A stretch of 64,000 nucleotides of DNA, taken from Candidatus Saccharimonadales bacterium (GTDB lineage: Bacteria > Patescibacteriota > Saccharimonadia > Saccharimonadales > UBA7683). The notes beneath the pieces were generated by a model that was not told the DNA's origin, made no database searches, and saw only the letters and a list, made by a program, of their open reading frames with translations. Below, piece after piece: positions 3,598 through 45,190 of this stretch. The position numbers and the translations under genes were made by a program. Every line of letters begins with the position of its first letter. Positions within the stretch are counted from its first letter, which is position 1. The DNA is taken from contig JAXMAA010000001.1 of assembly GCA_046350615.1 (NCBI GenBank), positions 200,480 to 264,479 of the forward strand, read 5' to 3'.

Positions 3598-3625
3598 CAG
3601 TTGTACTCTATTATACCCCAATACG

Positions 3626-3646: not shown

Positions 3647-3722
3647 ATGCTTCGCATATATCTTCGTTGCTTACTCGGAGCAAGCTCCTGTGTAAGCTCC
3701 TCGCTATCGAACTTCTGTTCTC

Positions 3723-4242: not shown

Positions 4243-4320
4243 GGGCTCGTAGTGAAGTTGGCCTATCACGTCTCCCTGTCACGGAGAAGATCGCCGGTTC
4301 GAATCCGGTCGGGCCCGCCA
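4243..4320 (+). tRNA. tRNA-Asp (anticodon GTC)
   Basis: GGGCTCG/CGGGCCC acceptor, D arm GTGA...TCAC, anticodon arm TCTCC-CTGTCAC-GGAGA, T arm GCCGG-TTCGAAT-CCGGT, G discriminator plus CCA. Confidence 0.9.
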
Positions 4321-4327
4321 AGTGGAC

Positions 4328-4355
4328 AAAATACCATTTTTATGGTATTTTTTAT
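4328..4355 (+). terminator. weak AT-rich hairpin plus T-run after tRNA-Asp
   Basis: aaaatacca (4328-4336) pairs with tggtatttt (4343-4351), followed by more T. Only 2-3 G/C pairs. Confidence 0.35.
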
Positions 4356-4357
4356 TT

Positions 4358-31500: not shown

Positions 31501-31822
31501 AGACGCTCCAACTGCTACTAAGTGTGAGGCTTGTGGAGCCCGATCTTTGACTGTTGCCGCCCGCAGAATTAACACTTGCACTGCTTGTGCCCCACTTTGT
31601 TGCGTCAGAAGAGAAGTACCAAGAAACACTTACTATCGTCCCAGCCGGCCCACTACTTGGCGATACGGTCATTGCGCAAGTTGCAGCCGAGGCGGAATTT
31701 GATTTTGCAAGAAACAGCGTACAGCTAAGTACAACAAACACAAATACCAAAAGAGGTTTTTTGGCCAGAAGCGACTGTTGTGTCAGGTTATTAAAAAACT
31801 GTTTGTATTTTTGGTAACTCAC
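28562..31822 (-). CDS. giant secreted protein A (1086 aa), paralog of protein B in its C-terminal domain
   Basis: Signal/anchor LLVFVFVVLSCTLFLAKSNSASAATC. At least four ~85-aa Cys-to-Cys beta-rich modules. Pro/Cys linker, then the shared C-terminal domain ending VSTVELPPVY. Confidence 0.8.
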   Translation of the reverse strand: MSYQKYKQFFNNLTQQSLLAKKPLLVFVFVVLSCTLFLAKSNSASAATCAMTVSPSSGPAGTIVSVSWYFSSDATKWGTSSASVNSAGGNSQRSGSTSLTLSSSWSVSGSFYVGSKYYGDGCSGSFTLTTPTTPPPQTNISCDIWADTTRLNYGGSTMVKWSSSGGSVVSVEGPGLSSPAANNSSGVSTGPLTGTVTYKITVNWTADCTDTVTIGVDEAPPAGTNSCSLAVNLQWDSTYKMTWNSNTTNWLGEGRSKLFRKSTGESSFTEIASGLSLNNNSGRTVSPPDGKYTVYEFRAYDDTGKQYLTCNAGVDLTQTTGEPEVPTGNNCDLKISKEGSKFIAKWKSSAAINSSYKAWLYRGTPTEENKGLALNGQKEISPPTGTSTYVILIYNPTNNAMITSCSAQVTNDGTGSETTAFRFINNGGGIPFGPVSGADCQNGTANTFLHARDYWLTDSSGSRGPITGGGANSIGLKVNGAGWVCEGAGYTNVNATDGRVNNQTINGDAIYIESASVNVAGLSISGIVGKSIVLSRDAQYANRPGLTHTGVGNFPFTLNGLNSLDPNMQYIVTISTTAVQTARANGALVCASPALKPAGSLNDSGCNRSSATFSIVISGSCTSQTCPPTNCNPNDPTDDCPPTNTQQCQALSPAGAIGVPVSKTIFKGQSTLIKWKTIGSGGSSLKAYVESGSEISGAIGETAAGATVKPDATTTYYLATSPTANPAARYCVITIYVELPANRPYLKIDGSDVVSGAAFSTPDPATSCKPTSAAQNASIQTNGFLENRNTWGTSSAQYAAYASGAVGGQEPNTFLAKSGYLRGSGDIKDLLFANVFNASLNEPVGSAGKFYGLSGDAMPVPCINLNPDEIKASAFAEGPAGSFGAIKDVILKAPGPGNVVLTGDLTLSGTTEIAGNKTLVVKGNVTITGDLKYKPLANSAAEVPYLRIIANNIYIERGVNQIDAQLIAYPRVSGDGVIDTCSTVGGAGQWGERLTINGAGNSCNRGRALVVNGSLTARRIIWKSTYGTVGITEGVIDGSCLYSKSSTDCAAEHVIFSAEGYLGLFNNQASQLVSNPVSTVELPPVY

Positions 31823-32321
31823 TTGAGTTCTCCTCTGTAATCAGATTTACTATCGCCGGTCCCATCTCCCTAATTGTCTTTCTGCCTTGCAGACCATAAG
31901 CCTTTGCAAAACCAACGTCATCTTTATAGCTCTTCTGCATCTTCATGTAATATTCTTCCGCCTTCCTTCCATCACCAGAGCGAATATAAAACACAACCAT
32001 CGGATACAAACAGCTCGCATCAGATTCAAAATTTTTCTGCTTCTTTACCTTTTCAACAAGTAACTTTAAATCATCTTGAAAAAGTTGGCCCATTGCGTAC
32101 TGGGCTTCATCATAAATCTTACCTTCTCTAGTTCCTTGACATTGGTTGTTAAAAAGCTCGTCTCTTCGGTAATAAACAAATGCACTACTAGCAAGTAAAG
32201 CTAATGCCAGCAGGATAAGCAGCAGCTTCCGCCAACTAAAAATTGGCTTTTTGCCGGTACCAGTGACCCTACCCGCCGGTGCAGCTAGAAATTCTTTGTT
32301 GAGCTTTTTCCTTTTGAACAT
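31791..32321 (-). CDS. membrane-anchored helical-repeat (TPR-like) protein
   Basis: 176 aa. N-terminal TM helix LLLILLALALLASSAFVYY. Overlaps the start of protein A by 32 nt (operon). Confidence 0.5.
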   Translation of the reverse strand: MFKRKKLNKEFLAAPAGRVTGTGKKPIFSWRKLLLILLALALLASSAFVYYRRDELFNNQCQGTREGKIYDEAQYAMGQLFQDDLKLLVEKVKKQKNFESDASCLYPMVVFYIRSGDGRKAEEYYMKMQKSYKDDVGFAKAYGLQGRKTIREMGPAIVNLITEENSSELPKIQTVF

Positions 32322-32837
32322 AGATAATAAGGGGCCTCTCTACCTAAGCTTATGCTTACCAGTGTAACTCCCGTTCTTAATTACCGCAACTTTAAGATCC
32401 CCCACCGAGATAGCTGAAACCATCTTTGCCAAGAGAATAACGGTTACAACACGGCCAAGAAAGGCCCGAGCTCCTTCGGCGCAAAAAGCAAACCAAATTC
32501 AAGCACGCCTGCCATAAGAGGCAAGCATATGCCCATACACTTTCCTATTCATCCCTTAATTCTACAAATATCTCAGGTAAAATACTACTAGCGAGTTCAT
32601 TTGCAGGAATCATGGGACATTAAATATCCCACACTTTCTGTAGCTTGAATTAAATTTTGTACTCAGGCTTAAAGCTGTCTGCCAAAGGTAGTGTTGCTGA
32701 AAGACTCTCAATCTCTTTTTTATCTAAGGTTGCATAGCTATAGATGCCGTCTCTAGCAGCAATGTCTTCTGCGTAAGGGTTAGCGACCACAGTTACACCA
32801 TTGCTGTATTCAGTGTATGGATCACTACCAGTTCTAT

Positions 32838-32942
32838 CTACCGAACGGTTTTAGACCGGGCTGTAACGTCAAGGCGGTCAATAAAATCTTCAACAGCCCG
32901 CCGACCGCCCGGTGTTGTATAGAACAAAATCTCCCACGCCAT
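32838..32942 (-). pseudogene. truncated Gp49/HigB-like toxin fragment
   Basis: MAWEILFYTTPGGRRAVEDFIDRLDVTARSKTVR-stop parallels the N-terminus of the intact toxin at 34089-34433 (MIWEIIYYDTPSGKEVIKDFIDGL...). No continuation in frame. Confidence 0.6.
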
Positions 32943-32989
32943 ATTATGATCTTACCCTGTTATCTGGCAGAACACCATTGATACCGAAT

Positions 32990-33631
32990 CTAAACATCCA
33001 TGGGTTTTATTGAACTTGAGACTTCTTGGACATCTTTTTTAACTAGGTTTGCGGTGATTCCTTGATAATACAGCTGGATATCGCCAGCGCCATTGCCCGA
33101 AACAACATACTGTTCGTTTGGCTCCATATTCTCATATCGTATTACCATTTTGTTTTTCTCAAAGTTGTAGCCTATGAGTTTTGAGTATGGCAGCGAGACA
33201 ACTTGAGAGCCTAAGAACATCAATCTTTTGCTTGTAAAGATGAGTGTGCCTTGATCGATCGCTTCAAGACGCGTAACAGTCTGCTGCGTAGTACGCATAT
33301 TACTCTTACCGCCGGCAGTAGCTGCGCCAGCAACCAACCCAACTGGCCCAAGTAGAACGCCCCCGACAATACCACGTGTTATCACGCCCTTTTTCTTTGA
33401 TTTACCAGTAGTCGTTTCAACTATATGCTGCCTGTCAGCCATACGCTTTGCATTAAATGCCGCATAAGCCTTCTCGCCTGGCTCAAGATTAACAGTAACC
33501 TGAATCGGCTGAATCTTTCCTGCGAGAATATCATTCTTTCTTTGTTCTTCTGCTTCCTTCTTTGCCACCTGTGCATCTTTATAATCATTTGCAGCTTTTT
33601 GAATCTTATTCGCAAAATCTTTTAATCCCAT
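32990..33631 (-). CDS. hypothetical protein with Gly-rich hydrophobic segment and PH/GRAM-like C-terminus
   Basis: 213-aa ORF. GIVGGVLLGPVGLVAGAATAGG. C-terminal TLIFTSKRLMFLG pattern. No family assignment. Confidence 0.4.
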   Translation of the reverse strand: MGLKDFANKIQKAANDYKDAQVAKKEAEEQRKNDILAGKIQPIQVTVNLEPGEKAYAAFNAKRMADRQHIVETTTGKSKKKGVITRGIVGGVLLGPVGLVAGAATAGGKSNMRTTQQTVTRLEAIDQGTLIFTSKRLMFLGSQVVSLPYSKLIGYNFEKNKMVIRYENMEPNEQYVVSGNGAGDIQLYYQGITANLVKKDVQEVSSSIKPMDV

Positions 33632-33749
33632 AAAACTCCGATCATTTAATTACCCTTTGAGCTAAAACTATTGTAGCACCGACTGATAGAGGTGGCCGGG
33701 GCTACTCCGATGAATATGTAGCCCAGATTACAGAAGAACTCTTGAACCG

Positions 33750-34025
33750 CTAATTACTAGCGACTAATCTAAATTCTTTACCCAACGCCCCTGCTACTCG
33801 ATTGACGGTCTCTACGGTGGGATTAGTCGTACCGCTCTCCAAACGAGTTACGACTACCCGACTAACACCAGCCTTTTCAGCTAATTCTGCTTGGGTCATT
33901 TTCTTGCCTAAGCGTGCCCGAATAAGTTCACTCGCCAATCTATATTCAGGCTCTAGCTCATTATAAGCTGCTTTGAACTTGGGGTTCTTGAGTAATTCTT
34001 GTTTGTGCTGTTTCCATGTAGTCAT
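33750..34025 (-). CDS. XRE-family HTH antitoxin (HigA-like)
   Basis: KMTQAELAEKAGVSRVVVTRLESG helix-turn-helix. 91 aa, directly downstream of the toxin gene. Confidence 0.75.
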   Translation of the reverse strand: MTTWKQHKQELLKNPKFKAAYNELEPEYRLASELIRARLGKKMTQAELAEKAGVSRVVVTRLESGTTNPTVETVNRVAGALGKEFRLVASN

Positions 34026-34088
34026 AATTTTTGTTCTCCTCTGTATATTGTATCGTATATGTTACATCTGTGTCAAGTAAAATGTAAC

Positions 34089-34433
34089 TTATATGTTACG
34101 CTCTTTAATCTCTGCCTGACGCTGGCGAGCAATATCCAGCTCTTTTTTAGGAGTTGTTTGGGTTTTCTTGATAAAACCGTGCAACAGATAAATACGCTTG
34201 CCAAGTGCAAAGGCATAAAATACACGCACTTCTTGCTTGCCCCGTACCCTGAGCTCAATCAGGCCACCGCCCATAGCTTTAGCGTGCGGCATACCAAGCT
34301 GATTACCGTGTTCTTCCAGCAAATCCAACTGGCGACCTAACTTCGCCTGGGTATTTTCTTGCAAGCCGTCAATGAAATCTTTAATGACCTCTTTGCCACT
34401 CGGCGTGTCGTAGTAGATAATCTCCCAGATCAT
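34089..34433 (-). CDS. RelE/HigB-superfamily toxin (phage Gp49-like)
   Basis: Start set at Met 34433. ...ELRVRGKQEVRVFYAFALGKRIYLLHGFIKKTQTTPKKELDIA is the typical Gp49-like core. Confidence 0.75.
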   Translation of the reverse strand: MIWEIIYYDTPSGKEVIKDFIDGLQENTQAKLGRQLDLLEEHGNQLGMPHAKAMGGGLIELRVRGKQEVRVFYAFALGKRIYLLHGFIKKTQTTPKKELDIARQRQAEIKERNI

Positions 34434-34483
34434 ATGCTGATGATAACAGCTCGAACTAGGGGTAACAAGGAAGGCGCAATGTT

Positions 34484-35317
34484 TTACCAATTGTCATGGG
34501 CAGTCAGGAAAGTTTTTTTGAGATCATCGCGTTTGGTAGCACTCCGTAAGGTAGGTTCAATTTTGTCGTAAAGATCTTCAAGATGCACGCTTCCGAACAG
34601 ATGCAAACCATCGCTATCGTCAATCATTTCCAGGATGATCTCCTGATGCAGATTTTCCAGTTCTAACAACGCATTTATTGAGGTCGCAGGATCAGTCACT
34701 GGGACACGCTGGATGATTATGCGAACGAGTGCGCAGAAAGCCGCCACCATCTCCCCGGCACAAAAGTATGGGTCAAAATTACTTGCTCTCGACCATTGTT
34801 TAAACTGCTTTGCTGCCTGTTTAATCTCTTCCAGGTCAAGCGGTGCATTTAGATTATCGATTATTGTGGGGCTGACGGGTAAGGTTTTGTGCGAGCGATG
34901 CCAGTCTCCCACTTCGTCAGCCAGGGTCCGCATGATATTGAGATCAGCATGAAGTGGATCTTTGTACATTCGGTCAATATCATGACGTGTGACTAGTGGT
35001 GGAGGAATTGATTCAGCCTCAACCTCATCTGGTGATGGCGTCTTAAGGCCCCTTTTTTGATCCCAAACTATTGCGACAGCCACCATGTGCTTACAAAAGT
35101 CACCGTTAAACGGACAGTTGCAGTGACGGCTTAATCCGCCACTGCGAAACGCTAATCTCGTCACGTAGTCGCCGCTGCCATGAACAGCAGCTATGGCTTG
35201 TTTATCATCCCACTCTTCCAGCTCAACCGCGCCAGCTCTCATGTAAGCTTCACCACGCTTCCACACCTCTTGATGGCAACGATATAAAATAAGGTCAGAT
35301 GCAGATTCCATGCTCAT
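34484..35317 (-). CDS. SWIM zinc-finger protein
   Basis: CNCPFNGDFCKHMVAV (CxCxnCxH SWIM motif) in the N-terminal third. 277 aa. Confidence 0.7.
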   Translation of the reverse strand: MSMESASDLILYRCHQEVWKRGEAYMRAGAVELEEWDDKQAIAAVHGSGDYVTRLAFRSGGLSRHCNCPFNGDFCKHMVAVAIVWDQKRGLKTPSPDEVEAESIPPPLVTRHDIDRMYKDPLHADLNIMRTLADEVGDWHRSHKTLPVSPTIIDNLNAPLDLEEIKQAAKQFKQWSRASNFDPYFCAGEMVAAFCALVRIIIQRVPVTDPATSINALLELENLHQEIILEMIDDSDGLHLFGSVHLEDLYDKIEPTLRSATKRDDLKKTFLTAHDNW

Positions 35318-35450
35318 ACGTTAACAGATAAGATATAATGATTCTATGTCACAGCTTCAAATTGGGAAAGCCAGACGCTAAACATTCCATATTTTCTGAA
35401 TTTTGAAATGCCACCACGCAACAAGCGCGGCTACGCAAAAGAATTCGTCT

Positions 35451-35972
35451 CTAACCTAAGTCTAGAATCTTCTTATAAGTAACGTCTATCTGATTCCCGT
35501 CTAGGATGATTGGATTAAAACCTTGGGCTTCCTTGATCAGATGGTCTTGCCAGTTCATGAAGTTCTTTCGTTGCTCTGGCGTCTTGCCAAACGGATTGTT
35601 ACGATCTGGACTCGCAAGATTCGAGAGCAGTTCTTCATCTGTTTTCTTCATAATCACAATCTTGTCGAACAGTCCGTAAAAGTCAGTGATGTTCTCGGAT
35701 GATCCACACAAAATAGCGTTAGGATGCTTTGCTAAGAACTCTTTCAATACATCTTCACGCCAGTACCAGCCATACTCTGCGTACCAATCATCTTGGCCAG
35801 TCTCTTTGTATTCAGTGACCAGACCGAGAACTTTGCCTGTCTCGAACTCGCGCCATTCACACAAACCCGAAATTTCATCTGTATCAAAAAACTGTTCGTT
35901 CCCAATAGATTGAGCGTGCCCAACGAGCGTCGTCTTACCTGATCCAGGAGTGCCTGTTACAAGAGTCGCCAT
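35451..35972 (-). CDS. P-loop NTPase/kinase-like protein
   Basis: Walker A GTPGSGKTTL at the N-terminus. 173 aa, the size of nucleotide/nucleoside kinases. Confidence 0.55.
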   Translation of the reverse strand: MATLVTGTPGSGKTTLVGHAQSIGNEQFFDTDEISGLCEWREFETGKVLGLVTEYKETGQDDWYAEYGWYWREDVLKEFLAKHPNAILCGSSENITDFYGLFDKIVIMKKTDEELLSNLASPDRNNPFGKTPEQRKNFMNWQDHLIKEAQGFNPIILDGNQIDVTYKKILDLG

Positions 35973-35973
35973 A

Positions 35974-36627
35974 TTACTCTTCGTGAGACTTATTAAACCA
36001 CTCGTGTTCTAACTCGCTGCGTGGCGAATCGATAACTTTCCACTCACTATCTTCGACCAATAGTGCCTGGTCGTCTGTCAAAAGTACCATTTCAAATTTG
36101 TCACTATATTTGGCTTTAATCTCATCAATACTTTGTGTTCGTGCCTTCATGTCGTAGTGCGGAATAGGGACAACCTCTACCCAACCCATACCCTTGGTAG
36201 ATTCTAAGCCAGTCACCTTTTCTGGCTCATCTATTGAAGAAATCGCACCGATATCAGGACCAGCAATTAACGCTCCTGCGCTTGCGCCTGCGTAGAGACC
36301 GCCATTTCTAACATAGTCGTCGAGCAATTTATCAAAACCCGTCACACGAAGCTGCTTTAAAAAGTGAAATGTATTTCCCCCTGCAACATACACAATATCC
36401 GTAGCTGCAAGCTGACTCTTCATTTCGTCTTCTGATGCACTTTCAATGTCTAGTTCGGCAATCTGAAAGCCCATTTTATGGAGTACGTCACGGTCTTTAT
36501 CTATCCACCACACGTCTTCATCGAGATTACCAGCAGTTGGGATAAATAGCAGCTTTGTCTTCTCGGCTTCACGACCAACAAACGTCTTAATGTATTCTAA
36601 GCCACTAGATGCAAGGAAGAGTTTCAT
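35974..36627 (-). CDS. peptidase S51 (dipeptidase E-like) family protein
   Basis: LLFIPTAGN, VYVAGGNTFHFL and GASAGALIAGPDI motifs, typical of S51/class I GATase-like proteins. Confidence 0.7.
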   Translation of the reverse strand: MKLFLASSGLEYIKTFVGREAEKTKLLFIPTAGNLDEDVWWIDKDRDVLHKMGFQIAELDIESASEDEMKSQLAATDIVYVAGGNTFHFLKQLRVTGFDKLLDDYVRNGGLYAGASAGALIAGPDIGAISSIDEPEKVTGLESTKGMGWVEVVPIPHYDMKARTQSIDEIKAKYSDKFEMVLLTDDQALLVEDSEWKVIDSPRSELEHEWFNKSHEE

Positions 36628-37142
36628 AGTTTCACCTCAGTTCTTTTATCAACGTAATCACCACCTTTTTCGCCTTCATCGTTCATCCAGACTTTCCGCG
36701 GAATGGCTTTATAAATACGAACAGCACCTTCGCCTGTCATTTGTTCTAACTTCCAGTACGGCACAGGTCGCCGATTCTGCAGCAAAGCATGCACTCGCTT
36801 AATTTCCTCTGCGTCAGTTACCTCTTCTGCCAACGCTTGGATGTATACACCTTCACCCTTACCTGCTGGAATTGTTGAGTCGTAAACCGTAATAAAAACT
36901 TTGTTGTTTGCAGCAATATTCTGAGAGTGTTGGGCATCTTTATCCGAACCCCAATATAGATTGTATTGCTCATCATATGCGCTAAACACGGCGGTGTTCC
37001 ATGGCTGGCCGTTTTGGTCGGTCGTGGCAACATTTAGATAAATTACTTGTTCGATAATTTCTTTAGCACGGTCACCACTGACACTTGGAGTTGGGTACAT
37101 ATTACTCATTTGTTTCTGCATTTTCTGGACTTCGTGTTTCAA
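36624..37142 (-). CDS. pyridoxamine 5'-phosphate oxidase-like FMN-binding protein
   Basis: NVATTDQNGQPWNTAVFSAYD...YWGSDKDAQHSQNI split-barrel pattern. The true start may be Met at 37121, 37109 or 37100. Confidence 0.55.
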   Translation of the reverse strand: MKHEVQKMQKQMSNMYPTPSVSGDRAKEIIEQVIYLNVATTDQNGQPWNTAVFSAYDEQYNLYWGSDKDAQHSQNIAANNKVFITVYDSTIPAGKGEGVYIQALAEEVTDAEEIKRVHALLQNRRPVPYWKLEQMTGEGAVRIYKAIPRKVWMNDEGEKGGDYVDKRTEVKL

Positions 37143-37755
37143 TGCGTTTTTGTAAGATCGAAGGACCTACGTAAAGTGTTTGTGAAAACGCCTCCAATAG
37201 AGCCATCATCTCTGAGGCATCCTCGGGCTTTACTTCAGTAGTATCTTCTGCATTTTCTGGGCGTGGATGAGCGCCGTTGTTACCTACGCCGCGAACTTCG
37301 TGCGCCATTTCTTTTAGAGGTTTCGTGATAATTTGCTCTTTGAGCAGCCAGTCGATTTGTCTCGCAAGGTCATTGCTGACCTCCCGCTCTTTTCCAGTCT
37401 TATCTTTTACAGTCCGCTTGCTCGGTGCTCCTTGATCTAAACATATCCCTTGTAGCGCACGTCTTGCCATAGTAACGGCAGCACGCATGGCGCCAACACT
37501 TTCACAGAGCAATGCTTCCTCAAAATCAGCTTTAATACTTGGGGGCAGTGAGTCGCTTACCACCCTAGGTAATGCTTTTGGATTCAAACTAACAATCTTC
37601 GCACTTGGCAAAATCCTTTGAACTAGAAAGTGTTGTTGACAGTTATTACATTCACCAACTTCGTATCTAAAATTCGTTGTATCGTATTGCGCTCTCCTGA
37701 TAAGCGTGGTGCCAGTCCTGCAATTTGGACATATTATTGAATTTAGGTCAGCCAT
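37102..37755 (-). CDS. Zn-ribbon + DUF4145 (HEPN-like) protein
   Basis: N-terminal CPNC...CNNC ribbon. C-terminal MRAAVTMARRALQGI ... VRGVGNNGAH, matching the remembered DUF4145 RxxGNxxxH signature. Confidence 0.6.
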   Translation of the reverse strand: MADLNSIICPNCRTGTTLIRRAQYDTTNFRYEVGECNNCQQHFLVQRILPSAKIVSLNPKALPRVVSDSLPPSIKADFEEALLCESVGAMRAAVTMARRALQGICLDQGAPSKRTVKDKTGKEREVSNDLARQIDWLLKEQIITKPLKEMAHEVRGVGNNGAHPRPENAEDTTEVKPEDASEMMALLEAFSQTLYVGPSILQKRIETRSPENAETNE

Positions 37756-37820
37756 AATAAACTTATTTTAACCTGTTATTTAGTAAAAAACCACTGAGGT
37801 TGTGTAGCCCACAAGGCTGC

Positions 37821-39641
37821 CTACAGCCTGTCTTTAATTTGCTTGAATAGTTTTTCGACAGCACTAATCGTAGTTTTTGCAAAGTCATCTTTCTTGAAGT
37901 CTCCGTTTTCAACTGCCAAGCAAAACTTAACCGCCATAAGAACCTTTGATTCTTTATTACTACCCATGTAAGCCGAGTTTGACTCGGTGTAAGTAAGTGT
38001 TTTGTCACCTAGCACATGGGTCTTGAAGTCACCCTTGGTAAATATGTCTTCGACCCCTTCACATCCATCAATCGGTAATAAGTTTGCTTTTGCCAAGTCA
38101 TCGTTACCGCCGTAAACTTCTGATTTTAACTTTCTCCGAATCCTCTTGCCAGCATCATCGTCGTCGGTCAGCACAATGAATTGAAGCCCCCACCCAAGGA
38201 AAAGATTAACTAGCAGTGGTATCTTAGTTACGCCAGTTGAGGGAATAAAATTCATCTCGTGTGCTTCACCAAGCAGGTGCTTGAATGCCTTCAGGTAGTA
38301 AAACGCACTCGGCTCTTCGAGTATGATATTATTTTTTGCTTTTATGACTCTCTGGTGCTGCAGATTTACTCCAATAAGTGTGTAGATGGGTAGCAACGTA
38401 TCTTGTGATGCTGTACCAAGCTCGTGAACACCGTAGACTTTCGTTTCACTGTTATCATCATCTTCATTCGACCTCTGTACCGCCAGCAGTCTATAAAGCG
38501 TATCGGCTTCTATGAGGTAGGGTGAGTGCGTAGTGTATATAATCTGAAGACTCTTTTTAATATCTTCAAAGACTTTTAGCACATCTTCTTGCGCCTTACC
38601 ATGCAAACTTGCACCGGGCTCGTCTATTAGTAGTACTTGTCCCTTTTCGCTCAACATAGCGCTTGCTTTGAGCTGCAAGAAAAAGGAAAGAAACCACTGC
38701 ACACCCTTACTGCGCTGCGCTGGGTGCAGGACCTCCTCACCATCCTTCACCCAGAAAACTAGATATGGTTGGCCTGCTGTCGCAGGGTCTGTATCACTAT
38801 GTCTCTTTAGATCAAACTCAATCTCTATCTTATTATTTTTTCCTATGTACTGACTCCAGAATTCTTGAAATTCCTTCGTGAGTTTTTTGTTAGCATCCCT
38901 GATTCGCCGTTCAATAATTCTCTCGTTGTCGCCAGATATATCCTCTGGTTTTATCCCGATTATCGTCAGGAAGTTTTGCGCGCCTTTTATGCCTTTAGTT
39001 TTCTGATTATTCTTCACTACATCTGACAGGTCTATCTTTGCCGGGAGCAGACTACCATAGTCTGCAAATAATTCGAATACTGGCATCTCATCCGACAGGC
39101 CAGACAAGAATTCATCTGCTGTTGGTTGTGACTTACTTTCAACTTCCGGCTCGGGTGTTGCCTCGGGCGTAGTGCCCGGCTCACCATCACCAGGTTCAGG
39201 CGCATCCTCGTTCACGGCCGCATCGCCCACTTGACCCGTGTCTTCCTCTTCTTGCCAGTAATCTATCAAGTTGCTCTGCTCAAGAGAAAAGACGCTATCC
39301 TTTTCGGTAACACCAGACCAACGCCGAACAAAGTTCACTCTGTTTTTGTTCTTCTTAATGACTCCGATTAGATCCTCGTGAAGCTCAAAGTTCTCAAATA
39401 TATCGATTAGCTCAGATTCAGTCAGCTCAAAGGAGCAGCATACTTCTGGATATGACCCATCACTCCTCAGGTAATCTTCATCTAAGACACCATTATCAAA
39501 ACTGTGAAGCGCCTCAAGAACTGAACTTTTGCCCGATTCATTTTGACCAATAAGTCCAGTTATATTGTCGGTCGACAAGTCGCGCCAGCCCGTATCTAAG
39601 ATGGATCGAAAGTTTCTTATCCTAAATGCAATCAATTTCAC
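37821..39641 (-). CDS. OLD-family nuclease (ABC-type ATPase + TOPRIM)
   Basis: Start moved to GTG 39641 (aaggagg 7 nt upstream). Walker A GQNESGKSS, Walker B LLIDEPGASLH, H-loop YTTHSP, TOPRIM Glu (IILEEPS) and DxD (VLTDDDDAGKR). Confidence 0.85.
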   Translation of the reverse strand: MKLIAFRIRNFRSILDTGWRDLSTDNITGLIGQNESGKSSVLEALHSFDNGVLDEDYLRSDGSYPEVCCSFELTESELIDIFENFELHEDLIGVIKKNKNRVNFVRRWSGVTEKDSVFSLEQSNLIDYWQEEEDTGQVGDAAVNEDAPEPGDGEPGTTPEATPEPEVESKSQPTADEFLSGLSDEMPVFELFADYGSLLPAKIDLSDVVKNNQKTKGIKGAQNFLTIIGIKPEDISGDNERIIERRIRDANKKLTKEFQEFWSQYIGKNNKIEIEFDLKRHSDTDPATAGQPYLVFWVKDGEEVLHPAQRSKGVQWFLSFFLQLKASAMLSEKGQVLLIDEPGASLHGKAQEDVLKVFEDIKKSLQIIYTTHSPYLIEADTLYRLLAVQRSNEDDDNSETKVYGVHELGTASQDTLLPIYTLIGVNLQHQRVIKAKNNIILEEPSAFYYLKAFKHLLGEAHEMNFIPSTGVTKIPLLVNLFLGWGLQFIVLTDDDDAGKRIRRKLKSEVYGGNDDLAKANLLPIDGCEGVEDIFTKGDFKTHVLGDKTLTYTESNSAYMGSNKESKVLMAVKFCLAVENGDFKKDDFAKTTISAVEKLFKQIKDRL

Positions 39642-39726
39642 CCTACACCTCCTTTGAGCAATTGTTGATTTAATTATAACCTTTCCACGTCTCAAAATAA
39701 ATACTGTATAATGCTTATGCTTATTG

Positions 39727-40272
39727 TCAAATTCCCTCTTCTTTTCTACTGATGGCTAGTGCGAGCAGCTCTCCCCAGCCCTTGCCAATGCCCTCTTCAC
39801 TCTCTGGCTTCGCGGCACTAACACTAGTTGGAAGCCCCATAATCACTCGCTCGCCATCAATTGCAGTCTTGAGCGCCCTCGCCAAGCTCGCCAGCTGACT
39901 AGCATCAACTGAGGAAACTCTAATTCTCTCGCCGGTTGTTGGGTCAACCAGAATTTTACCTTCCTGAGCAATTTCAGCGATCATACTAGATATAACGATT
40001 TGCAGGTTACGGTATTGCATTAAATGCTGTTCGTTTCGAGCAGTCGCTGATTTCTTATAGTCCTGTTCTGTCTTTTTCCCAGCCTTTTCGCCTAACAAAC
40101 GCCGACGCATCGCCCACGTTGTTTTGGAGCCATCTGGTCTTACTTTGGCTGCCTGGCGTTCAACAGCTCGCTTTGTGACATTAAACTCCTTGGCAACGTC
40201 TGAATAAGACCTGGTGGCGTCTTCTATAAACCAGGCGTACGCTTTGTTCCAATCTACTTTTTGAGTTGCCAC
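39727..40272 (-). CDS. hypothetical protein with putative N-terminal HTH (phage small-terminase/regulator-like)
   Basis: YSDVAKEFNVTKRAVERQAAK looks like a helix-turn-helix. GTG start with gaaagg upstream. 181 aa. Confidence 0.45.
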   Translation of the reverse strand: MATQKVDWNKAYAWFIEDATRSYSDVAKEFNVTKRAVERQAAKVRPDGSKTTWAMRRRLLGEKAGKKTEQDYKKSATARNEQHLMQYRNLQIVISSMIAEIAQEGKILVDPTTGERIRVSSVDASQLASLARALKTAIDGERVIMGLPTSVSAAKPESEEGIGKGWGELLALAISRKEEGI

Positions 40273-40320
40273 GCTAAAACCTTTCGTTTATGCGTGGTTG
40301 CTTATGCTTAGTATATCAGA

Positions 40321-41040
40321 TTAGTGTGTTGGCGCTTTCGCGTGTTCGGCAACATACCGCTTTGCGTTACCAGCTGCAACCTCACTGTATTTAATATTCA
40401 TTTCAGTGAAGTCGCGTGTCATCTTGCCCATGCTACCACCACCGGTATTACCACTATCGATCTGTTTCTCAAGCTCGATATCACCCGTAGTTGTATGCAG
40501 AACATAGTAAAAGTTTCCTTTGACTCTGCCTTGTTCCTTCTTCTTTGGCGCAGCCAACGCAAAAACACCAACTGTTGCCAGCCGAGTAGCCGTGACACGC
40601 TGTGATGAGCTCATTTGTCTTTCATCACTTGATTGCTTATCAAAACTAATAATCTGATCCCATGGTAGTTCTTTTATAACCACCCGCTTATTCTTGCGCT
40701 TGCCATTCGTAACCGTTACGCCAAGCTCACCAAATTCAAGCTCAAGGTATTCTTGGCCGTGAATATCTGGGTGTGAGCTGTAATAGATGCCGCTAACCGC
40801 CAGCTTCTTTTGTTTTGCATCCTTGTCCTGAGGTGTATTAAGTTCTTCCTCCGATTTTGATGCAATTATGATGATGTCGATGAGCCACCAAATACCTAAA
40901 CCGCCCAAGGTGCAAAGTTTTAGGATACCTGTACCAATCTTGCCTTGATAAAAACGGTCCGCACCGATTGTGCCTGCAAATATTGCTAGTAACAGTGCTG
41001 TTTGCTTGCTTTTGTTGGTTGATTCTTTTGCTTCGCTCAT
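40321..41040 (-). CDS. TM2-domain membrane protein with cytoplasmic C-terminal domain
   Basis: LLAIFAGTIGADRFYQGKIGTGILKLCTLGGLGIWWLIDIIIIA is a TM2 domain. Confidence 0.7.
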   Translation of the reverse strand: MSEAKESTNKSKQTALLLAIFAGTIGADRFYQGKIGTGILKLCTLGGLGIWWLIDIIIIASKSEEELNTPQDKDAKQKKLAVSGIYYSSHPDIHGQEYLELEFGELGVTVTNGKRKNKRVVIKELPWDQIISFDKQSSDERQMSSSQRVTATRLATVGVFALAAPKKKEQGRVKGNFYYVLHTTTGDIELEKQIDSGNTGGGSMGKMTRDFTEMNIKYSEVAAGNAKRYVAEHAKAPTH

Positions 41041-41130
41041 ACTACCCCCAGATTAATGTTGATCTGTACGGCAAAACAAAAAGCCCGCCGCCAGCGATGG
41101 CCGAAGCCACCCATACCCTTTCGAGTATGA

Positions 41131-41175
41131 CCATTCCGAATAGTGCTCTGACGACGAGCTTATTATTCGGAATGG
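41131..41175. repeat. 12-bp perfect inverted repeat in a divergent promoter region
   Basis: ccattccgaata (41131-41142) / tattcggaatgg (41164-41175), 21-nt spacer. Lies between the divergent genes 40321-41040 (-) and 41282-41956 (+). Confidence 0.7.
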
Positions 41176-41281
41176 ATTTTGGTGACCATGCCAATTGCTT
41201 GGTTTAGGTCGTAGTGGTTTGACCACTTACCAATATTATACCCTGTTATTTACTATTTGTGATGGCATATACTCATAGGTA

Positions 41282-41956
41282 ATGAAAGCCAACCATGATA
41301 TAGAAAAAAGCCGCTGGTGGATGCTCGAAAAGATCAAGCAAGACAGCGAGACCAGCAAGAGTAAGAAGTTTATAACGAGCCTCGGTGAACCGGATGACGA
41401 ATACACCTCATCTCAACAACGAAAGGTTCTGCTTAGTTTCGTTGCCGATGGCATACTGCGCCTCAAGCCGCATCGTGAGCCATTAGCTGATCTTATTGCT
41501 ACCGCTAATCCTGAAACCTATTACCATGTCGACTCATTTGTCGTGACTCTGATTGAGCCAAACTTTACAGAAGTTCATGAAAAATATGCCAGCAAATTCC
41601 GGAACTACACTGCAAACCTTAGAAAAGAGTATGACGAGTTATACGTTGATATTAGTGATAGAAAGTACTTAATCCACAAGTATAAAGCCGGCTCTACGCT
41701 TGATGATTTGATTGATGAGCTATTCTTCAAACAGCACAATAAAAGAGTTCAACGAGATGATCTAATCAACCAAGGCATACTCCGAAAAACCGACAAGTCC
41801 CTCGCTAAGCTGATGCATAAAGCTGGCTTCACTGGGATCATTGCCCAAATATTCGTGCCTATTAGAGAGGCGACTGAGGTCAAACTTTCAACTTCTGCCG
41901 TCATTTCAACCGATCAAATGAACGCCATAGAACAGCATTTCAAGAGCACAAACTAG
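41282..41956 (+). CDS. hypothetical protein (224 aa)
   Basis: Clean ORF, first gene of the recombinase-side arm of the island. No recognisable motif. Confidence 0.5.
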   Translation: MKANHDIEKSRWWMLEKIKQDSETSKSKKFITSLGEPDDEYTSSQQRKVLLSFVADGILRLKPHREPLADLIATANPETYYHVDSFVVTLIEPNFTEVHEKYASKFRNYTANLRKEYDELYVDISDRKYLIHKYKAGSTLDDLIDELFFKQHNKRVQRDDLINQGILRKTDKSLAKLMHKAGFTGIIAQIFVPIREATEVKLSTSAVISTDQMNAIEQHFKSTN

Positions 41957-42079
41957 ACCACTCGCGAGTCTGTGCGTTCCCATAATTAGGCGGTTCAAAC
42001 TATTACACGATCCCCTAACGTTCCCTTAGGATTCCCTTCAAGCATCGTGAGGTACTTTTTGCTAGAAGATAACTGAGAT

Positions 42080-42373
42080 ATGAACTCAGTAGCGAAATTA
42101 TTAGAAAATCAAATCGAGAATGAGAATGAGAACTGGAAAGACATTCTTGATTTTCGGTTTGTTGATGAGTTCGTAGATGGCTTAGTAAGAAGATATAGGA
42201 ACCCTGAGTTCCGACGATGGTACTGCAAACTTGTTTATAACATCGGGCCTTATCGCATAAACGAGATTCAGGGGCGTGTTCAGGGCGCTAAAGATGAAGC
42301 GAAGTTGTTTAGTAAGTTAGCGAATCAGGAGCTGCAGCTGGTACTGAACAAGAAAAAGAGGCGTGATGGGTAA
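42080..42373 (+). CDS. hypothetical protein (97 aa)
   Basis: ORF with a basic C-terminus. Overlaps the next ORF by 11 nt. Confidence 0.45.
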   Translation: MNSVAKLLENQIENENENWKDILDFRFVDEFVDGLVRRYRNPEFRRWYCKLVYNIGPYRINEIQGRVQGAKDEAKLFSKLANQELQLVLNKKKRRDG

Positions 42374-42578
42374 ACATCAACAAAACCCATCATTGCAGTA
42401 TTCACTTACTGAAAACACCGCTGATGCCTCAGCTATTGATGCTGTATTTAATCAAATTTTCGAGGAGGTAACGACACAACAAGGGCTTACAAACAAAACC
42501 AGTAGCACTACAATGCCAACAGAGGTAAAAATCGAAAGGAACGATCATGAAACGAGTAGCGATATATGCGAGGGTTAG
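42363..42578 (+). CDS. hypothetical small protein (71 aa), uncertain
   Basis: Overlaps both neighbours. Its position immediately 5' of the recombinase would suit a directionality factor, but there is no sequence support. Confidence 0.3.
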   Translation: MMGKHQQNPSLQYSLTENTADASAIDAVFNQIFEEVTTQQGLTNKTSSTTMPTEVKIERNDHETSSDICEG

Positions 42579-44148
42579 CACCGCTCGCCAAGAAGAGGAA
42601 GAAACTATTGAGTCACAGATCGGTGCAATCAAAGACCGTGTCAAACAAGACGAACTTAGTGTTGATGAAGGCGCCATATATAAAGACGAGGGCTATACTG
42701 GCTCTATTATCGAACGCCCCTCCCTCGATAGATTACGTGATGCCTGCAAAGAACGGCTCTATGATGTAGTTTACGTGTTCGATTACGGTAGATTTTCGCG
42801 TGATCTAACGAACTTAATGCTAGTCAAAGACGAGATCGAAAAGCGTGAAATTGAAGTCCGATCACTCCACGAACGCATAACCGGTGAGTCAGCAATCGAT
42901 CGCCTGCTCTTGCAAGTTATGGGAGCATTTTTTGAGTACGAGAAAAAGAAGATTGCGCAGCGATTTCACAACGGCAAGATTCAAAAAGCAAAGCGTGGTG
43001 ACATTGTGGGCTATAATCCTCCGTATGGTTACACCTACATCAAAAAGTCCGACAAAACTCCTGGCAAGATAGAAATCAACCCAGCCGAAGCGGCGGTTGT
43101 GAAACAAATATTTGACTGGGTAACCGAAGATAACCTATCCACGTATGCGGTAATCAAGAAACTAGCTGAACATGGGATTCTCCCCCGCAAAAACAAAAGC
43201 AAATACTGGACTCGAGGCCCAATTAAAAGAATCCTCAACAACGAAACCTACATTGGCCTGCATCATTACAACAAGAGTGAGGCCATAGAACCGCGATATA
43301 GACTCAAGCAAACTAAGTACCGCAAGCAGCAGAAAACGGGTCGGCGACAACGACCTCGTGAGCAATGGCTTCCCTGTAAAGTTGATGCAATCATCACGAA
43401 ACAACAGTTTGACGAAGCACAGAAGCAAATGCAACGACAAAAGAAGTATCGCCGCCGCAATATCAGACACCCCTATTTGCTTACCGGCATGATTGAATGC
43501 CCGTGTGGATCAAGACGTAATGGTGACGGACCTGACGGCAAGAAATATTACCGATGCATAATCAGGCACCTGTATTACGACCGAATCAATCGTTGTACTG
43601 TTGGGGGTCTGAACGTTCAAATACTCGACCGACTCGTCTGGTCAGAGATTGAACAACTTCTCACCCGCCCCGATGTCATTCGCTCACATGCCGAACAGTG
43701 GCTCTCAAAGCGCAATGAACACCAAGAACCGCAAGATGATGTAGATAGTAAGCTCAAGCAGCTCAGAGCGGTCGAGAACGAGCAAAGACGCTATGTTGAT
43801 GCATACGGCAAAGGCAGCCTGAGCGAAGAGTTGTTCAACGAAAAAATGGCCGAAACAAATGCTAGTCTCAAGTTGATCAAGAAACAGATACAAGAGTCCT
43901 CGCAAAACAGAGGTGAAGCTGTTAAAATAAGTGTTGATCAAATCGTTGAAATGGCCGTATTCAAAATTGAGAGCCTCGACTTTGCAGCAAAACGCGATAT
44001 TGTCGAACGAGTAATAGACAAAGTAATCGCCGATCCGAAAGAGGTAAAAATATGGGGACACTTACCCGTCAATACAGAAAAGGTAAACTATGAGCCTAAG
44101 CATCGGAATTGTAGGTCTGCCGAATGTTGGGAAGTCGACGTTGTTTAA
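42547..44148 (+). CDS. large serine recombinase (resolvase + recombinase + Zn-ribbon domains)
   Basis: RVAIYARVSTARQ catalytic Ser region, recombinase-domain motifs (YGY...), CPCGS...YYRC Zn ribbon, coiled-coil tail. 533 aa. The last 59 nt overlap ychF. Confidence 0.85.
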   Translation: MKRVAIYARVSTARQEEEETIESQIGAIKDRVKQDELSVDEGAIYKDEGYTGSIIERPSLDRLRDACKERLYDVVYVFDYGRFSRDLTNLMLVKDEIEKREIEVRSLHERITGESAIDRLLLQVMGAFFEYEKKKIAQRFHNGKIQKAKRGDIVGYNPPYGYTYIKKSDKTPGKIEINPAEAAVVKQIFDWVTEDNLSTYAVIKKLAEHGILPRKNKSKYWTRGPIKRILNNETYIGLHHYNKSEAIEPRYRLKQTKYRKQQKTGRRQRPREQWLPCKVDAIITKQQFDEAQKQMQRQKKYRRRNIRHPYLLTGMIECPCGSRRNGDGPDGKKYYRCIIRHLYYDRINRCTVGGLNVQILDRLVWSEIEQLLTRPDVIRSHAEQWLSKRNEHQEPQDDVDSKLKQLRAVENEQRRYVDAYGKGSLSEELFNEKMAETNASLKLIKKQIQESSQNRGEAVKISVDQIVEMAVFKIESLDFAAKRDIVERVIDKVIADPKEVKIWGHLPVNTEKVNYEPKHRNCRSAECWEVDVV

Positions 44149-45190
44149 TGCGTTGACGAAGAATGATATTTTGGCGGCCAATTACCCGTTTGCCACGATT
44201 GAGCCGAATACAGGGATTGTGCCGGTACCAGATGAACGGCTACTGAAATTAAGCGAGCTGTATAATAATGCGCCGATTGTACCGGCCGCAGTTACGTTTG
44301 TTGATATTGCAGGTTTGGTTGCAGGCGCAAGCAAGGGCGAGGGCCTTGGTAATCAATTCTTGGCTAATATTCGCGAGTGTGCCGCCATCGTCCACCTGGT
44401 GCGGGCTTTTGAGAATAATGATATTGTTCACGTTCACGATCGTATTCACCCGAAAGAAGATATTGAAATCATTAACACTGAGTTGATGCTGGCAGATCTG
44501 CAAACGGTGGAGAAAAGTTTGCCTCGAATTGCCAAGGAGGCCAAAGCTAATCCGAAGTTTAAGCCAATTCTCGAGTTGCTTACCCAACTGCAACAGCTCC
44601 TTGAAGCCGGCGATATTATTGGTATCCACGGACTGGTAAAAGATCTGGATCCTGAATCGGAATCCGGGATGACGCTTCGCTCAATGCAGCTGATGAGCGT
44701 AAAACCAGTAATTTATGTGTTCAATATTGATGAGGAAAACTTAACGAACACCGAGAAGCAGCAAGAGCTAACTCAATTAGTTGCCCCCGCCCAAAGTTTG
44801 TTTGTAAACGCCCAATTAGAGGCTGAGCTCAAAGATATGCCCGAAACTGATGCCGCAGAACTATTAGAGAGCTACGGGCAAACCGAATCTGGCCTCACAA
44901 AGGTTATCCACGCCGCCTTCTCTACCCTTAGGCTTCAAAGCTATCTCACAGCTGGTGAAAAAGAGGTGCGAGCCTGGACCATCAAGCAAGGCTCTACCGC
45001 TCCTGAAGCTGCTGGCGTTATTCACGGCGATTTTGAGCGCGGATTCATCGCCGCCGAAGTAGTAACCTGCAACGATCTCCTCACCGCAGGCTCAGTTTCT
45101 GCCGCCAAAAGCGCCGGCAAGGTTCGCACTGAAGGCAAAACCTACATCATGCAACCCGATGACATCGTCGAATTCCGCTTCAATGTATAG
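44090..45190 (+). CDS. ychF: redox-regulated ribosome-binding ATPase YchF
   Basis: GIVGLPNVGKSTLFNALT, DIAGLV.GASKGEGLGNQFL, and the C-terminal TGS domain ...DFERGFIAAEV...GKTYIMQPDDIVEFRFNV. Confidence 0.9.
   Translation: MSLSIGIVGLPNVGKSTLFNALTKNDILAANYPFATIEPNTGIVPVPDERLLKLSELYNNAPIVPAAVTFVDIAGLVAGASKGEGLGNQFLANIRECAAIVHLVRAFENNDIVHVHDRIHPKEDIEIINTELMLADLQTVEKSLPRIAKEAKANPKFKPILELLTQLQQLLEAGDIIGIHGLVKDLDPESESGMTLRSMQLMSVKPVIYVFNIDEENLTNTEKQQELTQLVAPAQSLFVNAQLEAELKDMPETDAAELLESYGQTESGLTKVIHAAFSTLRLQSYLTAGEKEVRAWTIKQGSTAPEAAGVIHGDFERGFIAAEVVTCNDLLTAGSVSAAKSAGKVRTEGKTYIMQPDDIVEFRFNV

Follow-up and report, generated by a model that had tools for sequence, protein, structure and literature searches.

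A probable integrative island with defence-type cargo that joins ychF through a replacement start nested in its recombinase gene in a Saccharibacteria genome

In a 64,000-nt stretch of a Candidatus Saccharimonadales genome (GenBank assembly GCA_046350615.1, contig JAXMAA010000001.1, positions 200,480 to 264,479; here called the window, to which all coordinates given without another locus name refer), the ychF gene starts inside the 3' end of a gene for a large serine recombinase (LSR). The locus raises the question of how an intact ychF came to share its first codons with a recombinase, and of what the genes between the type IV pilus cluster and ychF represent. A first-pass annotation had described these genes as two divergent arms, had noted that the recombinase open reading frame (ORF) runs 59 nt into ychF, and had proposed an integrative island, carrying defence or toxin-antitoxin genes, or a prophage remnant, just upstream of ychF. 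The ORF map agreed with this layout (minus arm from 41040 down to 32990, plus arm from 41282 to 44148), and the coordinates of the two genes (42547-44148 and 44090-45190) gave the same 59-nt overlap. The results favor, with a probability of roughly 85%, the reading that positions 32608-44106 are an integrative island inserted by its own LSR into the 5' end of ychF, with ychF kept intact and a cargo of defence type. The island proper (~32608-44106) measures ~11.5 kb. The source organism belongs to the Saccharibacteria (Saccharimonadales), within the Candidate Phyla Radiation (CPR), and its top YchF relatives in a species-level genome collection were metagenome-assembled genomes of Saccharibacteria. 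No exact copy of the window YchF sequence was on record, whereas the identical recombinase is encoded on an NCBI contig from Saccharimonadales.

Evidence for insertion was obtained by comparison with related loci, which are designated by L numbers. In the order-level relatives L001, L003, L005, and L006, the type IV pilus cluster was followed by ychF within 2 to 3 kb, the genes 3' of ychF were syntenic with those of the window, and no homologues of the window genes between 32990 and 44148 were found. The homologue of the window gene at 31791-32321 was located 128 bp from ychF in L001. The adjacency of the pilus cluster and ychF in these relatives, together with the lack of island homologues, therefore indicates that the block was inserted between 32322 and the ychF start. 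An intact native ychF site was also found in L193-195, whose YchF was 86% identical. For the closest relative, L170, a Logan contig with 96% YchF identity and flanks of 91 to 94% nucleotide identity, the blastn alignment to the window stopped at 32600 and restarted at 44087, within a few bases of both predicted junctions, with 92% nucleotide identity from 44087 onward. The island was missing from all relatives examined, at 61 to 96% YchF identity. The proposed insertion just upstream of ychF could thus be placed more exactly, inside the 5' end of the gene.

At the right junction, the beginning of ychF differed between occupied and unoccupied sites. In the unoccupied sites examined, ychF codons 2 to 5 (Ser-Leu-Ser-Ile) read AGT TTA TCn ATn in L001-L006, with TTG for Leu in L193-195. 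In element-bearing loci, the same codons read TCT/TCC CTC AGT ATA, and in the window AGC CTA AGC ATC, while GGAAAGG or GAAAAGG preceded the start codon in place of the promoter. The switches between the two Ser codon families (AGY to TCN and back) are not explained by point mutation under selection. When the window was aligned with L282, whose recombinase is 78% identical, a 17-nt arm, ATGAGCCTAAGCATCGG, was found to be identical, and identity around the GG dinucleotide dropped from 56/60 on the left to 39/60 on the right, where the host ychF sequences differ. This drop places the crossover at or just after GG 44105-44106, in ychF codon 6 (Gly), and hence within the recombinase ORF, in keeping with the earlier expectation of an attachment junction in or near the recombinase 3' end. 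The Shine-Dalgarno (SD)-like sequence, the ATG, and codons 2 to 5 of ychF are accordingly element DNA, nested in another frame in the last recombinase codons, and ychF from codon 6 onward is host DNA.

The same arrangement affects the recombinase itself, whose last 14 codons and stop fall in host ychF DNA. Its frame is open until a TAA formed by the conserved Phe-Asn codons of ychF (TTT AAT), which accounts for the recurrent 59-nt overlap; the overlap was longer where the Phe codon was TTC. The C-terminal tail is thus predicted to end in ...NCRSAECWEVDVV in the integrated form and in ...NHGTLNIPHFL in the excised form.

At the left junction, the window scar reads GCGAGTTCATTTGCAGG, in which the ychF start codon has been lost. 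The promoter stretch aaaatactacta was identical to the native ychF promoter of L194, and eight attB/attL queries (attachment site of the empty chromosome and left junction, respectively) always gave their best local alignment at 32552-32630. At the homologous position, L170 carries a pristine ATGAGTTTATCCATTGG, followed by foreign DNA. The eight queries, the L170 alignment, and the L194 promoter match converge on a scar at 32570-32607, an exact scar being missing in the window. On the element side, the left end of the island, GGAATCATGGGACATTAAATATCCCAC, fits the pattern GG.AT....GGAC.TTA..TAT.CC, which is also found in the P' arms of L081, L086, and L277, and the outer CCCAC motif of its P' arm is common to L128, L151, and L159. 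Outside the scar lies the remnant of an ABC-transporter gene: L170 has the whole gene (2820-4538, blastn), and ~1.57 kb of it has been deleted in the window; the same gene is the left neighbor of attL in L081 and L277. The first-pass annotation had regarded the whole left edge (32322-32989) as decayed island DNA. The truncated Gp49 fragment within it is real, while positions 32322-32607 are host DNA.

Comparable scars were observed in other hosts. A second ychF start with native codons and a native-type promoter, followed by GGN and unrelated DNA, was present 7 to 10.4 kb upstream in L081, L086, L277, L099, L151, L159, and L154. The attL-type scar was less certain in L097 and occurred in two tandem copies in L128; the L170 scar was counted, along with that of L097, as aberrant or doubtful. 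In total, attL-type scars were counted in nine loci other than the window, these two included. The pairs of attL and attR (right junction) share only a GG(G/A)A(T) core, and a search for direct and inverted repeats as attachment sites found no flanking direct repeats of at least 14 nt. So short a shared core is as expected for a serine integrase. The presence or absence of islands among relatives, together with scars of the same type in many hosts, supports repeated integration.

The window LSR retains the features expected of an active enzyme. Its Resolvase domain covers residues 4-152, Y7-A8-R9-V10-S11 was invariant in 27 family sequences, as were Cys318, 320, 337, and 350, and the Zn_ribbon_recom match scored 25.3 bits, exactly at the cut-off. 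Matches in PDB comprised the TP901-1 catalytic domain (1e-16) and, weakly, the SPbeta and A118 integrases (in the C-terminal region for A118). From these features, the recombinase looks functional, and catalysis of the insertion by this enzyme is probable. No relatives above 31% identity were found in IMG/VR, and none above ~30% in GenBank phages.

In the proposed mechanism, the LSR inserted the island at the GG of ychF codon 6. The sequence establishes that the right end of the element brings the SD-like GAAAAGG, the ATG, and four replacement codons, which join the host frame at the crossover, and that the native near-leaderless promoter with the first ychF codons was left 11.5 kb upstream as a scar. 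Transcription of ychF would then have to come from element DNA, with read-through from the recombinase operon as its simplest source. Since the native -10 box lies 5 to 8 nt before the ATG without an SD sequence and the start supplied by the element is SD-led, translation initiation would probably shift from near-leaderless to SD-led. For the excised circle, the predicted attP junction is ...GGTAAACTATGAGCCTAAGCATCGG / AATCATGGGACATTAAATATCCCAC... (…CATCGG / AATCATGGGACATT…, the slash marking the crossover), and the restored attB is predicted to read ...aaaatactacta ATGAGTTTATCCATTGG / AATTGTAGGTCTGCC.... No contig with an attP-type junction was present among the recombinase-homologue loci returned.

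The same design was found well beyond the window. Recombinase homologues located immediately upstream of ychF on other Saccharibacteria contigs were 50 to 57% identical (L081, L082-85, L086-89, and L277) or 78% identical (L282). In every locus of this close family, whose recombinases span 52 to 78% identity when the partial locus L093 is left out, ychF is full length and its start codon falls within the recombinase ORF; the two genes overlap by 44 to 158 nt, most often by 59 nt. A metagenome scan with the recombinase alignment added 80 loci. Overall, in 53 of the 89 loci L081-L169 the first codon of ychF lies at or within the 3' end of the recombinase gene, including cases where the recombinase was only 33 to 41% identical and the adjacent YchF only 42 to 52% identical to that of the window. 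The delimited elements measure ~7 to 10.4 kb. No LSR was found within 10 kb of ychF in a separate set of 80 genome loci (73 actinobacterial, ~58 of them Streptomyces, and 7 of Saccharibacteria type). Recombinase and YchF identities were 58% versus 62% between the window and L081 and 55% versus 68% between the window and L082, and the histories of host and element disagree. The overall correlation of recombinase and YchF divergence (Spearman 0.47) suggests that transfer took place mostly among related hosts. The window island is one member of an extensive family of LSR islands that insert at ychF in Saccharibacteria; other lineages hold more remote relatives.

Several observations weigh against the favored reading. 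Compared with the intact scar of L170, the attL host arm of the window differs at 8/17 positions, contains a 1-nt indel, and has lost the ATG. L170 itself is not a clean empty site, as its attL-type scar is followed by an unrelated 2.4-kb segment (ABC1 kinase), and the local history at that site appears to include more than one event. A comparison of composition, suggested in the first-pass annotation, revealed only a weak contrast between the island and its surroundings (GC content, 44.3% versus 45.6%; tetranucleotide distance, 0.175 versus 0.154 +/- 0.011). A consensus scan found no promoter just upstream of the new ychF start; the same scan gave a plus-strand promoter-like site at 42486-42514, and direct reading a ychF-like CTGTTA...TACTAT motif at ~41241-41256. 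Finally, an excisionase-like HTH_17 gene overlaps the start of the recombinase gene in L282 and L086 but is absent from the window, where homology to L282 begins exactly at 42547. With its degraded attL host arm and no HTH_17 gene, the window copy may no longer move.

The weak compositional contrast and the correlation of recombinase and YchF divergence would also be compatible with a core, vertically inherited block that merely resembles an island. The same gene block was not seen in distant genomes, where its conservation in place had been named as the observation that would speak for such a core block. It was absent from every relative examined at 61 to 96% YchF identity, its breakpoints coincide with junctions of the attachment-site type, and the cargo is different in each family member. 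These comparisons refute the reading, and its probability is considered negligible.

A far stronger competitor is that the island was inserted as described and has since become fixed, the recombinase being kept only for the ribosome-binding site and start codon of ychF, and perhaps for its transcript, so that the whole behaves as ordinary chromosome. This possibility is rated only a little below even odds. The decay of the attL host arm relative to the L170 scar, the missing HTH_17 gene, the nearly ameliorated composition, and the state of the left end, where a toxin pseudogene adjoins the deleted ABC-transporter gene, would all be accounted for. It is harder to reconcile with a full-length recombinase that has all invariant catalytic and zinc-ribbon residues, with an attR element arm identical to that of a sister element whose recombinase is 78% identical (L282), and with the intact gene for a conserved 97-aa partner protein. 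The HTH_17 gene is also absent from members with intact scars (L277 and L082) and so may not be needed.

On integration, ychF is always cut off from its promoter and given a new translation start, and this design is conserved across a deep recombinase clade. The element might therefore serve as a regulatory switch of the "active lysogeny" type, in which reversible excision and integration mainly shift ychF back and forth between expression from the native leaderless promoter and expression driven by the element, with the cargo being secondary. A precedent is provided by a pneumococcal prophage located between dnaN and ychF that modulates ychF expression, lowering it when integrated and restoring it on excision; its attB is a repeat of 14 bp that lies in the -35 region of the ychF promoter (Chen et al. 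2019; PMC6375853). In both cases, the integrase gene lies directly upstream of ychF and integration rearranges the ychF expression signals. The pneumococcal element is, however, a prophage with attB outside the coding sequence and no replacement start codon (PMC6375853). The Saccharibacteria elements rebuild a complete ychF with its own SD sequence, which would neutralize the insertion and not switch the gene off; variable defence cargo is their dominant content, and the window copy looks poorly excisable. A switch is thus considered unlikely, and integration with restoration of ychF is retained as the favored reading.

With regard to cargo, Pfam matches bore out the TM2, DUF4145, PNPOx-like, S51, SWIM, and HigBA-like assignments of the first-pass annotation (Table 1). 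The Gp49 toxin gene is followed, 63 nt away on the same strand, by the HTH_3 (helix-turn-helix) antitoxin gene, as in a HigBA-like type II pair; the Gp49-like fragment at the left end had no Pfam match of its own. The N terminus of the SWIM protein resembles the candidate defence protein PDC-S62 and the N terminus of DpdE. For the predicted OLD nuclease, the ATPase was clear and, in PADLOC, the gene matched AriA (1e-25), Old (1e-22), and AbiLi (2e-22). Its C-terminal region aligned to the PADLOC Old model (341-518) and to the class 1 OLD structure 6p74 (342-552, E 2e-6), its best PDB match, with no match to Pfam TOPRIM. The P-loop kinase was matched only below the curated cut-off and is doubtful, and the supposed HTH protein at 39727-40272 had no detectable HTH. 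Three metabolic-type genes are also present. The gene content fits a defence island with a fixed docking module, and a defence function is likely judging from identities at the level of profile hidden Markov models.

In the other family elements, the cargo arm is different in each case while the target is fixed. The cargo of L086 is a Gabija system (GajA, 1.5e-159; GajB, 2e-127), two elements carry retron-type reverse transcriptases (RT 2e-55), and L277 carries a restriction-modification pair (methyltransferase and EcoO109I-type endonuclease) with CHAT and HEPN_Apea proteins. An SMC-like ATPase with DUF2130 and an HNH protein were found in L082, and Schlafen/AlbA_2, SNase, and radical SAM proteins in others. 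No Pfam domain of a relaxase, a coupling protein, or a type IV secretion system, nor any for oriT, was detected in the island ORFs or in 60 ORFs of seven sister elements, and the same sets contained no piPolB or polymerase domain.

An origin as a prophage remnant, or as a phage satellite that used a serine integrase, had been left as an alternative in the first-pass annotation, and some findings are in line with it. The recombinase matches a PHROG integrase family (5e-95), TM2-domain proteins match phage families, LOOT RNA, which the island carries (see below), was found on IMG/VR contigs, including one with a terminase gene, and two distant family members gave hits to Terminase_2 (one) and DnaD_N (one). 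The earlier statement that phage structural genes are absent was confirmed, as neither Pfam nor PHROGs revealed any capsid, tail, portal, or other virion gene in the island, nor any packaging (terminase), lysis, primase, or replication gene. The delimited members of the family reach only ~7 to 10.4 kb, the recombinase has no close phage relative by the identities given above, and no relative of the OLD gene was found in IMG/VR. A phage origin is therefore rated very improbable, and of the two alternatives offered at the outset, the defence or toxin-antitoxin island fits better.

Table 1. Features of the island, its junctions, and the adjoining host genes
Feature	Position	Strand	Remarks
ABC-transporter gene remnant, host DNA	32385-32528	-	first 48 codons of 572-aa gene; tblastn with L170 ABC transporter, 90% over residues 1-48
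attL host arm	32570-32607	+	displaced native ychF promoter (-10-like taaaat, aaaatactacta) and decayed ychF codons 1-6
attL core and element P' arm	32606-32632	+	GG 32606-32607; GGAATCATGGGACATTAAATATCCCAC; left end of island
Gp49/HigB-like toxin pseudogene fragment	32799-32948 (approx.)	-	in-frame stop; tblastn vs island Gp49, 36% over 50 aa, E 2e-10
213-aa hypothetical protein	32990-33631	-	no Pfam/PADLOC match; weak matches to PHROGs of unknown function
HTH_3 (XRE) antitoxin	33750-34025	-	Pfam HTH_3 7e-15; 11/12 promoter-like site at 34076-34047 (-)
Gp49/HigB-like toxin	34089-34490	-	Pfam Gp49 4e-28; likely true start Met20, ~114 aa
SWIM zinc-finger protein	34484-35317	-	Pfam SWIM 1e-5; PADLOC PDC-S62 4e-13, DpdE 2e-6
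Small P-loop NTPase/kinase-like protein (weak)	35451-35972	-	Pfam AAA_18 1e-3, below curated cut-off
Peptidase S51 (PepE/cyanophycinase-like)	35974-36627	-	Pfam Peptidase_S51 2e-43; NCBIfam PepE 6e-16
PNPOx-like flavin/F420-type protein	36624-37142	-	Pfam PNPOx_N 3e-10
DUF4145 protein, PD-T7-4-like (single-gene defence protein)	37102-37755	-	Pfam DUF4145 4e-16; PADLOC PD-T7-4 5e-8
OLD-family ABC-type ATPase with putative C-terminal nuclease (TOPRIM) region, 624 aa	37821-39695	-	Pfam AAA_15 6e-24, AAA_21 1e-18
181-aa hypothetical protein	39727-40272	-	weak phrog_1558 match; no Pfam, PADLOC, or NCBIfam match
TM2-domain membrane protein	40321-41040	-	Pfam TM2 6e-20; first gene of cargo arm
Cargo-arm control region	41085-41263	-	promoter-like site 41263-41235 (10/12), LOOT RNA 41210-41096, terminator-like hairpin and T-run 41097-41085
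224-aa hypothetical protein	41282-41956	+	first gene of integration arm; no family match
97-aa all-helical protein	42080-42373	+	intact; tblastn 33-42% identity in 13/13 close-family loci
Large serine recombinase, 533 aa	42547-44148	+	Pfam Resolvase 3e-27, Recombinase 7e-18, Zn_ribbon_recom 2e-5; PHROG integrase 5e-95
attR element arm	44073-44106	+	within recombinase ORF: SD-like GAAAAGG, then ATG AGC CTA AGC ATC GG
ychF	44090-45190	+	366 aa, intact; Pfam MMR_HSR1 and YchF-GTPase_C; full-length alignment to relatives

The island is laid out as a small integration arm (224-aa protein, 97-aa protein, and recombinase) and a divergent, exchangeable cargo arm headed by LOOT. Three hypothetical genes had been listed in the plus arm, of which those for the 224-aa and 97-aa proteins stood. 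The 71-aa ORF (42363-42578), also considered as an excisionase, contains no HTH and looks spurious; L282 has a real HTH_17 gene at this place, without a window counterpart. The 224-aa ORF has the same position and size as the 231- to 236-aa ORFs of sister elements, with no significant BLASTP homology to its counterparts in L082 and L086. Besides the recombinase, the 97-aa protein was the only one conserved in the close family, its gene lying 100 to 600 bp upstream of the recombinase gene. The protein family comprises ~70 representative clusters (71) of ~70 to 160 aa, most of 90 to 110 aa, with the motif Y.N..FR.WYC..IY.LG..RV.EL..R..DAK.PGKLFSKLA, and was seen in this analysis only beside ychF-targeting recombinases of the close family. 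An AlphaFold2 model was all-helical (pLDDT, 81); no PDB fold match was found by profile-against-PDB search or Foldseek, and a word-based protein search gave 2 hits. From its position, the protein can be guessed to be a directionality factor or a regulator.

The control region of the cargo arm, located 45 nt upstream of the TM2 start codon, contains a LOOT RNA (Rfam RF03000) that scored 70.9 bits against a gathering threshold of 46.4, covered model positions 1-121 of 121, and gave a fold z-score of -5.4. LOOT was rejected as part of the conserved module, being absent from 13/13 close-family loci and from L001, L002, L170, and L171. It was also found on four IMG/VR contigs (L179, 8399-8517; L175, 2421-2538; L172, 5520-5654; L192, 194-323), where the copies adjoin serine recombinases, a reverse transcriptase, or a terminase and lie upstream of unrelated genes. 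To our knowledge, all earlier examples of LOOT came from human oral metagenomes and had no assigned host. The orphan RNA hence gains a host lineage, the Saccharibacteria, and a placement on mobile elements. A 79-aa plus-strand ORF opposite LOOT (40968-41207), considered as an HTH protein, was not HTH-like. Five other IMG/VR contigs that matched the LOOT pattern by chance (L174, L181, L189, L190, and L191) carry group I introns, a cluster of 13 tRNAs (L181), and a hammerhead ribozyme of type II (L191), and are unrelated to the island.

LSR-encoding integrative elements include Bxb1, phiC31, A118, TP901-1, SPbeta, and SCCmec. Like these, the window island has an enzyme with Resolvase, Recombinase, and zinc-ribbon domains encoded at one end, is integrated in a protein-coding gene, and has junctions that share a very short core (GGNA(T)) and no long direct repeats. 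It differs from them in that its recombinase is at most ~30% identical to GenBank phage integrases, its target is ychF codon 6-7, and phage and conjugation genes are absent. A118 splits or inactivates comK, and SPbeta does likewise with spsM, whereas the window island rebuilds the 5' end of its target with sequence embedded in its integrase gene. Cases in which an integrase gene extends across its own attP are known from myxophage Mx8 (intP/intX) and Sulfolobus SSV1, both with tyrosine integrases. As in these, the window crossover lies inside the integrase ORF, so that integrated and excised forms encode different C termini; in contrast to them, the enzyme is of the serine type, only ~14 non-conserved tail codons change, and the overlap also encodes the start of the host gene.

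Defence hotspots on integrative elements, such as P4-like or P2 hotspots and phage-inducible chromosomal islands, likewise combine a conserved integration module with swappable defence cargo at a fixed chromosomal site. The island described here is distinguished from them by a serine rather than a tyrosine integrase, a CPR host, the absence of genes for exploiting a helper phage, and a target inside an essential-type GTPase/ATPase gene. The closest resemblance in target is to the pipolins of Actinomycetota, LSR-encoding, defence-rich elements that are neither phage nor conjugative and for which ychF was reported as a new integration site from genetic context (Mateo-Caceres et al., NAR 2024; PMC11551731). 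As far as the passages of that report on the site go, they describe LSR-bearing, defence-rich islands at ychF and no crossover or replacement of the 5' end (PMC11551731). The window island and the cargo ORFs of seven sister elements lack the piPolB hallmark, and their host phylum is Saccharibacteria/CPR. In the full-text literature, with subscription journals outside coverage, no description was found of a codon-6 crossover, of a nested replacement start, or of such islands in Saccharibacteria. As far as checked, then, the target-restoring junction and the large family are apparently undescribed, while systems of this general kind were known before, as was the targeting of ychF by LSRs.

The genomes of Saccharibacteria and other CPR bacteria are tiny, and descriptions of their mobile elements are few. 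A recurrent, delimitable island family shows how such bacteria acquire anti-phage systems, and new systems can be sought upstream of ychF. Here, a stretch of 30 to 40 nt serves at once as integrase coding sequence, ribosome-binding site, and beginning of a host gene, a clear natural case of overlapping coding in which insertion rewires its target and does not break it. The family also supplies natural attB/attP pairs for a conserved target, the P-loop region of ychF being nearly invariant across bacteria, and these pairs could serve serine-integrase engineering and genetic tools for Saccharibacteria.

A broader and more tentative proposal, which we hold possible though on the doubtful side, is that a deep LSR clade has become specialized for the opening codons of ychF and has captured its expression, that this coupling stabilizes the island, and that the 5' end of ychF is the main defence docking site of Saccharibacteria and possibly of other CPR bacteria. 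If so, YchF output would be coupled transcriptionally, and perhaps translationally, to the integrase operon, and losing or silencing the module would cost the cell ychF, which would stabilize the island. As the elements carry no transfer genes, their transfer could be by natural transformation.

Some additional features of the attachment region were recorded. In L001-L006 and L193-195, a conserved box resembling CTGTTA-(N)-TAnAAT ends 5 to 10 nt before the ychF ATG, and a similar box is present at 32570-32590 of the window; its position suggests that native ychF mRNA is leaderless or near-leaderless. A motif like this promoter box, (A/C)CCTGTTAT(C/T)T..., occurs three times on the plus strand of the island, at 32949-32981, 37764-37797, and 41234-41255. 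Two copies of the CCTGTTAT motif extend to a 33-nt repeat of 76% identity, and the third overlaps the divergent promoter region; read on the minus strand, the copies lie just upstream of start codons. Repeat D4 (32949 and 37765) was dropped as a second attL because of its place upstream of minus-strand genes. A 7-mer palindrome near 32345-32365, which resembles an element arm, was rejected as attL since the stretch is host DNA 91% identical to L170. In L128, two attL-type scars at 1570 and 2283, 713 bp apart, have native-like ychF codons followed by the element arm GGGATGGGCAG...CCCACTT.TAGAGT, which suggests tandem or nested integrations or a collapsed element.

The corresponding region of L170 (4575-7030) is without a recombinase. 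Its intact scar, ATGAGTTTATCCATTGG / TACACG..., is followed by 2.4 kb with a 72-aa membrane ORF and the ABC1 kinase, and its ychF, in which codons 2 to 5 read AGT TTA GAA ATA (MSLEIG), is preceded by its own promoter. Immediately inside the scar, 72 bp match window positions 33652-33722 (76%). The locus suggests an earlier island that was deleted or replaced. More generally, the 4 to 10 kb upstream of ychF hold different gene sets in L170, L171, L194, and L196, mostly on the minus strand and without any recombinase (e.g., ABC1 kinase, EamA, aldehyde dehydrogenases, isochorismatase, CutA1, HAD, PfkB, and TrmB), and the genes downstream of ychF are conserved (bPH_3, Crp-like, FtsJ, EF-P, S18, SSB, and S6). 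In this clade, the region upstream of ychF thus appears to be a general hotspot of variability, even without recombinases.

Beside the type IV pilus genes of the window, two very large minus-strand ORFs (24537-28028 and 28562-31822; 1163 and 1086 aa) were found to have no Pfam domain. Both match the C-terminal region of one single L001 ORF at 34 to 36% identity, and they appear to be diverged paralogues.

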